IMG/VR virus record: IMGVR_UViG_2706794698_000010
From: a virus
Lineage: Duplodnaviria; Heunggongvirae; Uroviricota; Caudoviricetes
DNA length: 4,456 nucleotides
Strand: one strand, 5' to 3'
Shown here: piece after piece, positions 1 to 4,456 of the stretch
Position numbering within the stretch: the stretch's first letter is position 1
Layout of the letters: each line of letters starts with the position of its first letter
Program-made: the position numbers and the translations under genes
The notes under the pieces: model-generated
Told to the model about the DNA's origin: nothing
The model's database searches: none
Seen by the model: only the letters and a program-made list of their open reading frames with translations

Positions 1-1
1 G

Positions 2-88
2 GGACGGAAGTCGCTGTCGTTCTCAAAATCGGTGGAGCTGCATGACAAAGTCATCGGGCATTATCTGAACATAAAACACTATCAATAA
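2..88 (+). CDS. insB: IS1 transposase InsB (InsAB') C-terminal fragment, 5'-partial at window edge
   Basis: Frame 2 translation GRKSLSFSKSVELHDKVIGHYLNIKHYQ followed by TAA at 86-88, matching the known C-terminal end of IS1 InsB. Confidence 0.85.
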   Translation, partial: GRKSLSFSKSVELHDKVIGHYLNIKHYQ

Positions 89-103
89 GTTGGAGTCATT
101 ACC
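81..103. repeat. IS1 terminal inverted repeat (IRR), left copy
   Basis: atcaataagttggagtcattacc is the reverse complement of the IS1 end GGTAATGACTCCAACTTATTGAT. IS1 sequence stops at 103/104, where identity with the right-hand copy also stops. Confidence 0.85.
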
Positions 104-421
104 CGTTAAAACATCTGCAGATAATGACGTTGACTTGGATACAGATGGATTCAGACAACTGAGGATATCGTGCCCATCCCCTTCTGCCAGCGGTGCGATT
201 ATATTGAGAAAAGCTTCTTATGAATTCGGCAAAAGTATAGGTGTATTTGATTTTGCAAACAATGCATCACCAGCGACGATGACATTTTTGATCCCAATAT
301 ATAAAGATGATGATTTTGATTCAGATACTGTTGGTTTTACATTTGCGTTCAAGATGCCAAGAGGCCAGTTTTTTGTAGATGTAAAAGAAAACGGGAATAT
401 CAGAGCTGGAGTTAATGTTAA
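104..421 (+). CDS. Hypothetical protein fragment, open in frame 3 from the IS1 junction into the first N run; probably the 3' portion of a gene 5'-truncated by IS1. Product unknown.
   Basis: About 106 sense codons with no stop in a roughly 40% GC stretch (the rest of the window is about 55% GC), which is unlikely by chance in AT-rich DNA. No in-frame ATG/GTG near the 5' end; the track's TTG start at 90 lies inside IS1. Uses AGA/AGG/ATA codons. Alternating hydrophobic pattern (VGFTFAFKM, QFFVDVKENGNIRAGVNV) suggests beta-rich structure. No family recognised. Confidence 0.4.
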
Positions 422-1751
422 NNNNNNNNNNNNNNNNNNNNNNNNNNNNNNNNNNNNNNNNNNNNNNNNNNNNNNNNNNNNNNNNNNNNNNNNNNNNNNN
501 NNNNNNNNNNNNNNNNNNNNNNNNNNNNNNNNNNNNNNNNNNNNNNNNNNNNNNNNNNNNNNNNNNNNNNNNNNNNNNNNNNNNNNNNNNNNNNNNNNNN
601 NNNNNNNNNNNNNNNNNNNNNNNNNNNNNNNNNNNNNNNNNNNNNNNNNNNNNNNNNNNNNNNNNNNNNNNGAAATGCAGGGCTGTATTGACGGGCAGGT
701 GACCGTTTCTCACTCCGGCACTGAAGGCCGTATGTGCCGGGTTTCATTTCAGTTTGTTGAGAGCGGGGAACTGTCATTTCCGGTCGCCGGAGCTGCAACC
801 GCCAGAAAACTGGAGGAGTCGTCCGTATTCCTGGATGAGTTGATTGAAGACATGTTCGGCGATTTTGATCTCGCGGGAATACCGGACTTTATTCAGAACG
901 ATGTTATTGCCCGGACGACCGATATGCTGGGAACCGTTCAGACAGCTTTCAAAATGGTTAATTCGGCTGTTTCTGCCGGAGCGAGACTACTGCAGGGCGA
1001 TTTATCCGTCATTCTGATGCCGCCGTCGGTTGCCAGTGATTTTGTGCATACGTTGCAGGATACCTGGCGGGCCGGAACCCGGCTGGTGGATAACACACAG
1101 GATCTGGTGCAGTCCATAACGACAATGTCCGGCATTACGCTGGACCNNNNNNNNNNNNNNNNNNNNNNNNNNNNNNNNNNNNNNNNNNNNNNNNNNNNNN
1201 NNNNNNNNNNNNNNNNNNNNNNNNNNNNNNNNNNNNNNNNNNNNNNNNNNNNNNNNNNNNNNNNNNNNNNNNNNNNNNNNNNNNNNNNNNNNNNNNNNNN
1301 NNNNNNNNNNNNNNNNNNNNNNNNNNNNNNNNNNNNNNNNNNNNNNNNNNNNNNNNNNNNNNNNNNNNNNNNNNNNNNNNNNNNNNNNNNNNNNNNNNNN
1401 NNNNNNNGCACAGGACAGGATGAGAGAGCGCAACCACCCACGCGGGAAAATCTCACCATCATACGCAAATCGCTGAACGCGGCGATTGAACAGGAGCTCA
1501 GGCGTACGGCGGATGACAGGCTGTTTTTTCAGCTGACGTCATTACGTACAGAACTGAACCGGGATATTCAGGCGCGTCTGGTTCAGACGGAGGAAACCGC
1601 AGAGCGAACGCCAGCGGAAGTTCTGCCTGCGCTTGTTCTGGCTGCGTCATGGTACGACGATGCGTCCCGTGAAACTGATATCCTGGATCGAAATGCCATC
1701 TCTCATCCGGGCTTTGTTCCGGTCAGGGCATTAAGGGTACCCGTCAGATGA
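415..1751 (+). CDS. Mu gpN-like DNA circularization protein (tail/baseplate-associated); 5' end approximate because it is hidden in the N run, and interrupted by a second N run
   Basis: Visible coding segments 672-1146 and 1408-1751 share frame 3 and end at TGA 1749-1751, overlapping the next gene's ATG. The motif TEGRMCRVSFQFVESGE resembles the distal part of the DNA_circ_N domain as I recall it, and the gene sits immediately upstream of P-Q-V-W homologues as in Mu. Candidate start ATG 415-417 preceded by GGAG 407-410, but this is in frame 1, so it is only valid if the true gap length differs mod 3 from 250. Confidence 0.55.
422..671. other. Run of 250 N (unresolved or masked sequence)
   Basis: Direct observation. 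Hides the junction between the AT-rich fragment and the gpN-like gene, and probably the gpN start. Confidence 1.
1147..1407. other. Run of 261 N (unresolved or masked sequence) inside the gpN-like gene
   Basis: Direct observation. The flanking coding segments are in the same frame and 261 is a multiple of 3, consistent with a length-preserving mask. Confidence 1.
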
Positions 1752-2830: not shown

Positions 2831-3330
2831 TCTGATTTCCCGGGCTGTCATCACGGCGGTGGATTCCGCCAGAAAGTGTCAGTCTGTAGGGTTGAAAATG
2901 ATAGCCGGAGATCAGAAACAACACGTTGAGCACCTTGAACCTTATGGTTTTACATCTGCCGCACAGAACGGTGCTGAGGGCGTTGCTTTATTTCCGGCGG
3001 GCGATCGTTCTCATGGTGTGGTTGTGGTCGTGGCTGACAGACGTTACCGGCTGAAAGGACTGAAACGTGGGGAAGTGGCGCTTTATGACGATCTGGGANN
3101 NNNNNNNNNNNNNNNNNNNNNNNNNNNNNNNNNNNNNNNNNNNNNNNNNNNNNNNNNNNNNNNNNNNNNNNNNNNNNNNNNNNNNNNNNNNNNNNNNNNN
3201 NNNNNNNNNNNNNNNNNNNNNNNNNNNNNNNNNNNNNNNNNNNNNNNNNNNNNNNNNNNNNNNNNNNNNNNNNNNNNNNNNNNNNNNNNNNNNNNNNNNN
3301 NNNNNNNNNNNNNNNNNNNNNNNNNNNNNN
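2808..3330 (+). CDS. Mu gp45 (Q)-like baseplate assembly protein V / central spike; 3' end approximate (hidden in N run)
   Basis: ATG with strong SD. Visible N-terminal 97 aa (GLKMIAGDQKQHVEHLEPYGFTSAAQNGAEGVALFPAGDRSHGVVVVVADRRY) fits the OB-fold region of gpV/gp45-family spike proteins as I recall them. The stop is not visible; the end coordinate is an estimate. Confidence 0.6.
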
Positions 3331-3367
3331 NNNNNNNNNNNNNNNNNNNNNNNNNNNNNNNNNNNNN
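3099..3367. other. Run of 269 N (unresolved or masked sequence) covering the gp45-like/GP46-like gene junction
   Basis: Direct observation. Confidence 1.
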
Positions 3368-3767
3368 TGTTAACGGGCGACCCGTGTCGACCGGGGCTTC
3401 GATCGACCTTCTGACGCGTGCTGTGATTATTTCGCTTTTTACATGGCGGCGTGCCGGGCGTGATGATGCACCACGGATATTTGGATGGTGGGGGGATACC
3501 TGGCCTGCGGTTCAGAATGATCGCACGGGGTCGCGTTTGTATCTGTTGCGACGCAGCAAGCTGACAAATAAAACCCCGCAGCTTGCCAGAGATTATGTCC
3601 GTGAGGCGCTGGCGTGGATGGTGGAGGATGGTGTTGCTTCCCGTCTTGATATTAACGCTGTCCGGACCGGGACAGACTCGCTGGCACTTGCCATTACCAT
3701 TTACCAGCGTGACGGCAATATTCACAACATTATTTTTGATGATATCTGGAGTGAACTGAATGGCTGA
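3320..3767 (+). CDS. Phage GP46-family baseplate protein (Mu gp46/V-like); 5' end approximate (hidden in N run)
   Basis: Visible 133 aa contain AVIISLFTWRRA, GWWGD, GSRLYLL, REALAWMVEDGVA and LALAITIY, matching the GP46-family pattern I recall (SLFTDRRA...GWWGD...SRLWLL...EALAWL..DGVA). Stop TGA 3765-3767 overlaps the next ATG (ATGGCTGA). Confidence 0.62.
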
Positions 3768-4434
3768 CAGTCAGTTTTATCGCCCCGGCCTCCCGCAACT
3801 TATTTCTATGATCCGGAGCGATTTATTAACCCGCTTTGAGCAGGATACGCTGCTTCGTCGTATGGATGCGGAAGTGTATGCCCGTGTACAGGCTGCAGCC
3901 GTACACACGTTGTACGGGTATATCGATTATCTTGCCAGAAATCTGTTACCGGACGTGTGTGATGAAGACTGGCTGTACCGGCACGCCAGAATCAAACGCT
4001 GCCCGCGAAAAGAAGCGGTGGCAGCCCGGGGATTTGTGCGCTGGGATGGCGTAGAGGGGACGCCGGTATTGCCAGCGGGAACGCAGATCCAGCGTGATAA
4101 TCAGGTGACCTTTACCACGACGGCGACGGTGACCGCAGCCGATGGTCTTCTCCGGGTGCCTGTTGTGGCAGACGAACCGGGATCGGCGGGGAATACGGAT
4201 GATGGTATTGCCATGCAACTGGGAACACCCGTCAGTGGTCTGCCGTCCACAGGGTACGCTGACACCATTACAGACGGTGAAGATATTGAAAATCTGGAAA
4301 TATGGCGTGCCCGCGTTATGGAACGTTATTACTACATTCCACAGGGGGGCGCAGGTAATGACTCCAACTTATTGATAGTGTTTTATGTTCAGATAATGCC
4401 CGATGACTTTGTCATGCAGCTCCACCGATTTTGA
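3760..4434 (+). pseudogene. Baseplate J-like protein (Mu gp47/W-like) truncated by IS1 insertion; native part 3760-4353 (about 198 codons), then 27 IS1-derived codons up to TGA 4432-4434
   Basis: N-terminal region and the ...GEDIENLEIWRARVMERYYYIPQGGAG... segment fit baseplate J-family features (acidic stretch, LR.R, GG motif). The ORF crosses the IS1 boundary at 4353/4354 and ends in the IS1-encoded tail NDSNLLIVFYVQIMPDDFVMQLHRF. Full-length family members are roughly 350-380 aa. Confidence 0.7.
4354..4376. repeat. IS1 terminal inverted repeat (IRR), right copy
   Basis: ggtaatgactccaacttattgat at the insertion boundary inside the baseplate J-like gene. Confidence 0.85.
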
Positions 4435-4455
4435 GAACGACAGCGACTTCCGTCC
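4369..4455 (-). CDS. insB: IS1 transposase InsB (InsAB') C-terminal fragment, partial, on the minus strand
   Basis: Mirror image of the fragment at 2-88. Minus-strand translation ends ...VIGHYLNIKHYQ with stop complementary to 4369-4371. Confidence 0.85.
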   Translation of the reverse strand, partial: GRKSLSFSKSVELHDKVIGHYLNIKHYQ

Positions 4456-4456
4456 C

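Follow-up and report, generated by a model that had tools for sequence, protein, structure and literature searches.

The window, by which we mean the whole 4,456-nt stretch of DNA analysed here, begins and ends in IS1 sequence and holds tail genes of a prophage between the two ends. Three related loci are used below to read it: L001, the prophage locus of 'E. coli' FDAARGOS_944, which is our reference for the intact gene; L022 (GCA_001688145.1), a sibling contig that is 100% identical to all unmasked parts of the window; and L029, a 61.7-kb IMG/VR contig carrying a complete insertion event. The features under consideration are as follows.

1-103, + strand: IS1 end, insB-distal (right inverted repeat) side, with the last insB codons at 2-85, the stop at 86-88 and the end of the element at 103.
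104-112, no strand: right copy of the 9-bp IS1 target-site duplication, CGTTAAAAC; the same 9 bp lie on both sides of IS1 in L029.
104-421, + strand: 3' fragment of the disrupted, probable moron-type gene, running from the last base of codon 34 through codons 35-139 to the second base of codon 140.
422-671, + strand: N-masked run, which by comparison with L022 covers codons 140-160, the TAA stop, a terminator, a Shine-Dalgarno sequence and codons 1-107 of gpN.
672-1751, + strand: rest of the DNA-circularization gene gpN (Mu N-like, PF07157), annotated in L001 and L002 and 96% identical to phiP27 gpN.
4357-4456, - strand: second IS1 end, inverted, which cuts the baseplate J/gp47 gene after 199 codons.

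The left IS1 end finishes in ...GGAGTCATTACC, and E. coli matches to positions 1-103 are annotated as IS1 family transposase. At the other edge, mapping on L029 shows 4354-4456 to repeat 1-103 in reverse complement, and homology to L001 stops at 4354. The baseplate J/gp47 gene (3760-4456) retains 199 of its 360 codons before the inverted element, and both IS1 copies turn their insB-distal end toward the 4.25-kb segment between them.

The segment between the left IS1 end and the masked run had been described in the earlier note as an AT-rich orphan coding fragment, open in one frame without a plausible start and enriched in rare codons. All of this was borne out. Positions 104-421 have a GC content of 38.1% against 54.5% for the unmasked phage sequence (z = -5.9), and the lowest value among 222 sliding 318-nt windows of the phage part is 48.1%. 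The frame with codons from position 105 is free of stops throughout, the other five frames contain 1-12 stops each, and only 92 of 20,000 shuffles of the same letters (0.46%) gave any fully open frame. AGA, AGG and ATA account for 9 of the 105 codons (8.6%) against 2.8% of the 820 downstream codons; all five arginine codons are AGA or AGG, and GC3 is 0.29 compared with 0.55 downstream. The sole start-like codon for this frame is a TTG at position 90, which lies within the IS1 end and has no visible Shine-Dalgarno sequence before it. This TTG lies two bases past the insB stop (window 86-92; L029 3982-3988) and opens an ORF of 131 codons, MESLP followed by residues 35-160 of the protein described below, which NCBI lists as a 'partial' protein. 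Having neither a ribosome-binding site nor a signal peptide, the TTG-initiated ORF is probably meaningless.

The fragment is 100% identical to L001 9001-9318, within a gene for a 160-aa hypothetical protein (WP_000594909.1, L001 8900-9382), and 97-99% identical to copies in ten other complete E. coli genomes. What it lacks relative to the intact gene is the start codon, the signal peptide and a possible lipobox. Neither the fragment nor the full protein matched a family in Pfam, NCBIfam or PADLOC, and at E <= 10 Pfam returned for them no PF07157 and nothing but one chance match at 0.2. The full protein nonetheless aligns over residues 1-160 with positions 1-161 of the 161-position profile of PHROG 5586 (E = 9.7e-89). 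The earlier remark that known families do not explain this stretch thus holds for Pfam, NCBIfam and PADLOC, and fails for PHROGs, where the match of the full protein is unambiguous (E = 1e-88). PHROG 5586 is of unknown function, and RefSeq labels both WP_000594909.1 and WP_252861237.1 'hypothetical protein'. Literature searches by accession or PHROG number returned no paper, nor any characterised homologue.

The event behind the left junction is preserved in L029, where the order is tape measure gene, first 110 nt of the moron gene, a complete 768-bp IS1 (3232-3999, with insA of 91 aa and insB of 167 aa on the + strand) and the remainder of the gene. Window positions 1-421 are 100% identical to L029 3897-4317. 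The copies of CGTTAAAAC stand at L029 3223-3231 and 4000-4008, and both IS1 flanks match L001 9001-9009 in the uninterrupted gene. This is a simple IS1 insertion at codons 34-37 of the moron gene, and the complete element with its 9-bp duplication confirms the truncation by IS1 that had been put forward from the window alone. The window stops short of the start codon and signal peptide, which are found across the element; since these are lost and any upstream promoter is beyond IS1, the window copy can no longer be exported and is non-functional.

The truncated form, including the IS1-derived residues ESLP, is already present in NCBI: the S. sonnei 130-aa 'partial' entry WP_252861237.1 begins ESLPVKTSAD..., the exact IS1-junction reading of the window. 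Contigs with this entry measure 4441-4458 nt and are bounded by the same IS1 repeats, so the window is in effect a repeat-bounded draft contig. The IS1/fragment junction had no exact match in species-representative genomes and no junction-spanning match in complete E. coli genomes, and was located through protein cluster members and IMG/VR. The window copy itself matters little, being one more IS1-broken gene in a decaying Shigella sonnei-type prophage; the intact gene is of wider interest.

Intact, the gene has 160 codons at about 37% GC and is found in SfV/phiP27-like prophages, which, as SfV and phiP27 themselves, combine an HK97-type head module with a Mu-type contractile tail. In L001 the tape measure gene ends at 8832, the moron gene starts 67 nt later with a GTG at 8900 preceded by its own GGAG Shine-Dalgarno sequence, and the gpN ATG follows 46 nt downstream of its stop. 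A tape measure end upstream of a separate gene start is also seen in L029. The expectation that the 3' end of the tape measure gene should occupy this position is therefore not upheld, as that gene ends 67 nt before the start of the cargo gene in the relatives. The order tape measure, cargo gene, gpN recurs in phage vB_EcoM-720R4 and in Yersinia, Salmonella-type and E. coli contigs; among the IMG/VR loci, the gene is followed by gpN in 27 of 27, with a tape measure gene detected upstream in 26.

Two further arrangements were seen at this slot. A metagenomic contig (L019, 2387-3423) has a HIRAN-domain gene (195 aa) after the tape measure gene and directly before the family member, which suggests that the slot accepts more than one cargo gene. 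In L027 and L030 (2059-5917) identity to L001 is only 75% for the tape measure protein and 96% for the cargo gene and gpN, suggesting that a recombination breakpoint lies close to where the tape measure and cargo genes adjoin.

The slot is polymorphic. Phage phiP27, whose tape measure and gpN are 98% and 96% identical to those of L001, has 15 nt between these genes versus 596 nt in L001. phiP27 and L001 stop matching at L001 8821 and match again from 9429, and the insert has 36.7% GC versus 52-55% in its flanks. A cassette of approximately 581-600 nt thus distinguishes some prophages from near-identical ones that lack it cleanly. Within E. coli, 11 of the 50 genomes with this junction type carry the gene; in those without it, among the matches listed, the flanks are joined across about 580 fewer bases. 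The slot is empty in SfV, ST64B and YeP1. Phage propagation does not depend on the gene, given that phiP27 and other phages examined lack it.

Morons in the sense of Juhala and Hendrix, as restated in PMC3594210, provide the natural frame for such an insert. The GC content of the gene lies between 34 and 41% in all six tail-slot loci examined. A hairpin with a T-run terminator stands directly past the stop in L001, where it was found by scan, and in L022, and a terminator was read by eye in four of the five further loci examined, so that low GC and a downstream terminator occur together in five of six tail-slot loci. The remaining type is the Salmonella-type locus L018, in which the gene sits 16-17 nt from both neighbours and has no terminator, an arrangement that looks like that of an ordinary late-operon gene.

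A consensus scan for sigma-70 promoters over L001 8600-9600 found none; the best relaxed match in L001 reaches 8 of 12 positions and falls inside the tape measure gene, and the Yersinia locus is the only one with a fair candidate promoter. With no convincing upstream sigma-70 promoter, expression from the repressed prophage is an assumption on our part. RNA polymerase modified by lambdoid Q proteins reads through terminators. As the SfV/phiP27-type phage group carries the antiterminator Q (PMC3851460), the late operon could still be transcribed past an internal terminator. The gene is cargo that some prophages have and others lack, and it shows the classical moron features of extra DNA, deviant GC and a terminator. 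This agrees with the impression that the fragment lies outside the core tail module, as a stand-alone cassette absent from phiP27 and other relatives, and the moron or cargo reading offered at the time is supported by the low GC, the terminator and the presence/absence polymorphism together.

The family is small at the level of clusters and representatives. Nine clusters were found among 5.8 billion proteins, and 19 matches among 1.84 billion representatives, from which three were set aside. These are giant repeat proteins (P0018, P0021 and P0025), rejected as members since their matches are probably spurious and repeat-driven; P0018 was inspected and is a 'CDSTATL...ICRGESYTFNG' tandem repeat, and P0021 and P0025 were judged only by their length and 10-12 short matched stretches. 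One isolated phage, vB_EcoM-720R4, carries a member, as do two loci among 185,579 species representatives. The Salmonella cluster holds several sequence variants that each occur on at least 1000 contigs. A tblastn search of phages and plasmids with the Salmonella-type and phage-plasmid-type members added one weak match.

Distant members, at 24-30% identity, reside in phage-plasmid-like elements beside IncFII repA, parA, toxin-antitoxin pairs and a CI-type repressor, and all known occurrences of the family are on temperate elements. Two of these loci, L015 (660-740) and L016 (2840-2920), have in common an upstream motif that is rich in AT (TTATTTAAATAAATATTTAAT), and each has a terminator of its own. 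Their members adjoin HigB/HTH or MazEF toxin-antitoxin pairs, IncFII repA and parA, and their GC content of 49-55% is not low.

Conserved columns run across the family alignment, and dN/dS is 0.095 against the Yersinia homologue, the least saturated pair; by these sequence comparisons, this is a real gene under purifying selection. Identities of 50%, 74% and 42% for the gene correspond to 53%, 67% and 52% for gpN. Given that its divergence roughly tracks that of gpN, the gene has probably resided in this slot for long and been lost repeatedly, rather than arrived recently. The idea of horizontal acquisition raised by the earlier note accordingly survives in so far as this is a cargo gene, but a recent acquisition is doubtful, as homologues hold the same slot with similar divergence in tail modules that are about 50% identical.

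As for the protein, all full-length members begin with one or two K/R residues, followed by a hydrophobic core and an AxA-type site, and the product is predicted to carry an N-terminal Sec signal peptide. The lipobox pattern [LVI][ASTVI][GAS]C is fitted by LTSC in the Shigella/E. coli members and by LISC in Yersinia; eight other members have no lipobox and show AxA-type (signal peptidase I) sites instead. In the Yersinia locus (L010, 7973-8001), an in-frame ATG 27 nt upstream of the annotated one gives MKKPIYLCLMMLISCC..., with a complete signal peptide and lipobox, and the start of this homologue is probably annotated too late.

Across the 11 full-length members that were aligned, two cysteines, C57 and C150, do not vary. 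An AlphaFold model built on 16 sequences (pLDDT 83, pTM 0.77), a number that is small and includes distant members, shows a helix at 24-41 and eight strands arranged as an up-and-down beta-barrel, with C57 and C150 at the first and last strands; an earlier model with eight close sequences was unusable (pLDDT 41). The position of the invariant cysteines on the first and last strands of the model suggests a periplasmic disulfide. Foldseek searches of the PDB and BFVD gave no match below E = 1e-3; a weak one, at E 0.04, was to a Serratia phage Moabite protein labelled 'putative lysozyme inhibitor', and a profile search of PDB sequences returned only a chance Calx-beta match (E = 0.7). The profile search and structure prediction of the full protein proposed beforehand thus ended in PHROG 5586 and a beta-barrel model, neither of them gpN or tape measure.

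Our overall reading, with a probability of about 0.85, is that positions 104-421 hold the downstream part, 79%, of a small accessory gene of moron type that stands alone in the prophage and that a simple IS1 insertion cut in two, leaving a pseudogene here. The only unassigned stretch of the window is thereby explained.

A different origin for the fragment, as the C-terminus of the tape measure protein or some other structural part of the tail in this phage lineage, is very unlikely. A structural role would fit the retention of the slot beside the tape measure gene across tail modules that are only 42-71% identical, and also the tightly packed gene of L018 with no terminator. However, the tape measure ORF (PF10145) stops 67 nt before a gene with its own GTG and Shine-Dalgarno sequence, the gene is missing from the viable phage phiP27 and from SfV, ST64B and YeP1, and it is equally missing from the listed prophages among the 39 of 50 E. 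coli genomes that have the junction without the gene. Distant homologues, moreover, lie in plasmid-maintenance regions away from any tail genes. The predicted Sec signal peptide and the conserved cysteines point to export, and phage tails are assembled in the cytoplasm. Since virions form there and the product is predicted to leave it, we infer from sequence and model an envelope-exported protein that would not be part of the virion.

Still less credible is a fusion in which the fragment would form a divergent N-terminal domain of the DNA-circularization protein gpN. This reading comes directly from the masked sequence, where a single frame (ORF 90-1751) spans the fragment and gpN once the Ns are taken for codons. 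The bases beneath the mask, whose recovery had been proposed as a check, are available in L022, where 1-331 equals window 91-421 and 763-1237 equals window 672-1146 (both 100%). Here, 250 Ns replace 431 nt of real sequence, and these hold a natural TAA stop for the fragment's gene, a terminator and a separate ATG for gpN. The terminator consists of GCCGCCAgaaatTGGCGG followed by T7, a 9-bp GC-rich hairpin of -14 kcal/mol (z = -3.5). The gpN gene of L022 (442-1833) starts from its own ATG and encodes a normal 463-aa PF07157 protein, the same product as in L021, and in L001 the two genes are in different frames, 46 nt apart. The other two N runs are likewise wrong in length, with 261 Ns for 252 real bases at 1147-1407 and 269 for 259 at 3099-3367; reading frames and distances should not be carried across any of these runs. 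As the run length is false (250 versus 431), the shared frame is an artefact, and the fused-domain suggestion falls with it.

That the fragment might be no more than an accidental open frame in AT-rich non-coding DNA that IS1 activity left behind, as its want of a start codon or family match within the window could imply, can be dismissed in view of the 0.46% of shuffles with a fully open frame, the full-length homologues at 24-74% identity with conserved columns and a dN/dS of 0.095, and the presence of the gene in RefSeq annotation and PHROGs.

The moron-type gene, in its intact form, thus encodes an uncharacterised, predicted exported beta-barrel protein that is common in enterobacterial prophages and holds a fixed slot beside the tape measure gene, and its possible function deserves some discussion. 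In the scenario we favour, the protein would be made in the lysogen and exported to the periplasm, or membrane-anchored in the lipobox branch, where the barrel would be oxidised and closed by its disulfide. It would then work at the lysogen's envelope, either in the periplasm or on the outer membrane, and protect the cell, most plausibly by superinfection exclusion through a block of the receptor or of tail or DNA penetration. One possibility is that it could catch the tail tip or tape measure protein of an incoming phage, or hide the receptor from the periplasmic side. We place exclusion first among the candidate roles, at somewhat less than even odds, by analogy with HK97 gp15, Cor, Llp, Ltp and SieA; an inhibitor of lysozyme-like enzymes comes next at long odds, and a structural tail role is unlikely. 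PADLOC gave no family at E <= 10, and among PHROGs only the unannotated 5586 was matched and no annotated exclusion family.

A close parallel is HK97 gp15, the first-described moron, for which superinfection exclusion was shown experimentally and whose gene lies between that of the tail assembly chaperone and that of the tape measure (PMC3594210). Both are small tail-operon insertions beside the tape measure gene, absent from related phages and equipped with their own terminator, with a product that goes (in our case, by prediction) to the cell envelope rather than to the virion (PMC3594210). In contrast to the present gene, that of HK97 gp15 is not located after the tape measure gene, and its product is a small inner-membrane protein related to YebO. 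The family described here has no sequence relation to it, is predicted to be a soluble or lipid-anchored beta-barrel and showed no promoter in our scan.

T5 Llp and phi80/N15 Cor are phage lipoproteins that block FhuA and exclude phages from the periplasmic side (PMC9586334, PMC3594210). They share with the present family a small size, a phage origin and predicted export or lipid anchoring, the latter suggested by the lipobox-like LTSC and LISC of the Shigella and Yersinia members, but most members differ from them in having a plain signal peptidase I site and no lipobox.

Only tentatively do we propose the intact family as a previously unrecognised group of prophage periplasmic beta-barrels, lipid-anchored in some branches, that may block infection at the envelope. 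If true, SfV/phiP27-like prophages of E. coli, Shigella, Salmonella and Yersinia would have kept such a gene next to the one for the tape measure, phage-plasmids would carry it as an independent unit, and the site behind the tape measure gene would be a minor hotspot for cargo. Its fixed slot and clean presence/absence polymorphism make the gene a cheap and well-defined candidate for tests of superinfection exclusion or envelope protection.

The intact protein could alternatively inhibit lysozyme or other peptidoglycan hydrolases, as a periplasmic protein or lipoprotein in the manner of MliC, PliC and PhiA, and would then protect the lysogen from host lysozyme or phage tail lysins; we consider this unlikely, though much less so than the readings of the fragment dismissed above. 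MliC and PliC occur as lipobox and soluble variants and have cysteines near their first and last strands. The same combination of lipobox and soluble signal-peptide variants with cysteines near the first and last strands is predicted here, and the weak Foldseek match to the Moabite 'putative lysozyme inhibitor' (E 0.04) points in the same direction.

At the sequence level, however, membership of the MliC/PliC group was rejected by profile comparison. PF09864 is not matched even at E = 10, and when the family profile was compared with E. coli MliC by hhalign, the probability came to 1.3% with the signal peptides alone aligned, for an MliC sequence that itself matches PF09864 at 6e-18. The SASG and GESGxxY motifs are not conserved in the distant members. 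Compared with MliC, PliC and PhiA (PF09864 and relatives), the present protein is larger, has an extra N-terminal helix and an unrelated profile, and the likeness to MliC/PliC is no better than that to avidins, Cap15 or designed barrels.

Some other traits of these prophages were recorded along the way. The baseplate-hub gene (Mu P-like) of the window differs from that of L001 by one A missing from an A8 run near its 3' end (2776-2782), which changes the last 7 residues and extends the hub ORF 9 codons into gp45, and by a 6-nt tandem duplication, GCTGGT (2296-2301). As the identical sibling L022 has the same 360-aa hub ORF, this is probably real decay and not a read error. The FDAARGOS_944 prophage has its own lesion, a tail sheath gene split by ISEc60 (L001 3307-6107), and it adjoins a frameshifted ipaHe effector gene (L001 18275-18318); this 'E. 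coli' record looks Shigella-like, with the prophage apparently part of an ipaH island.
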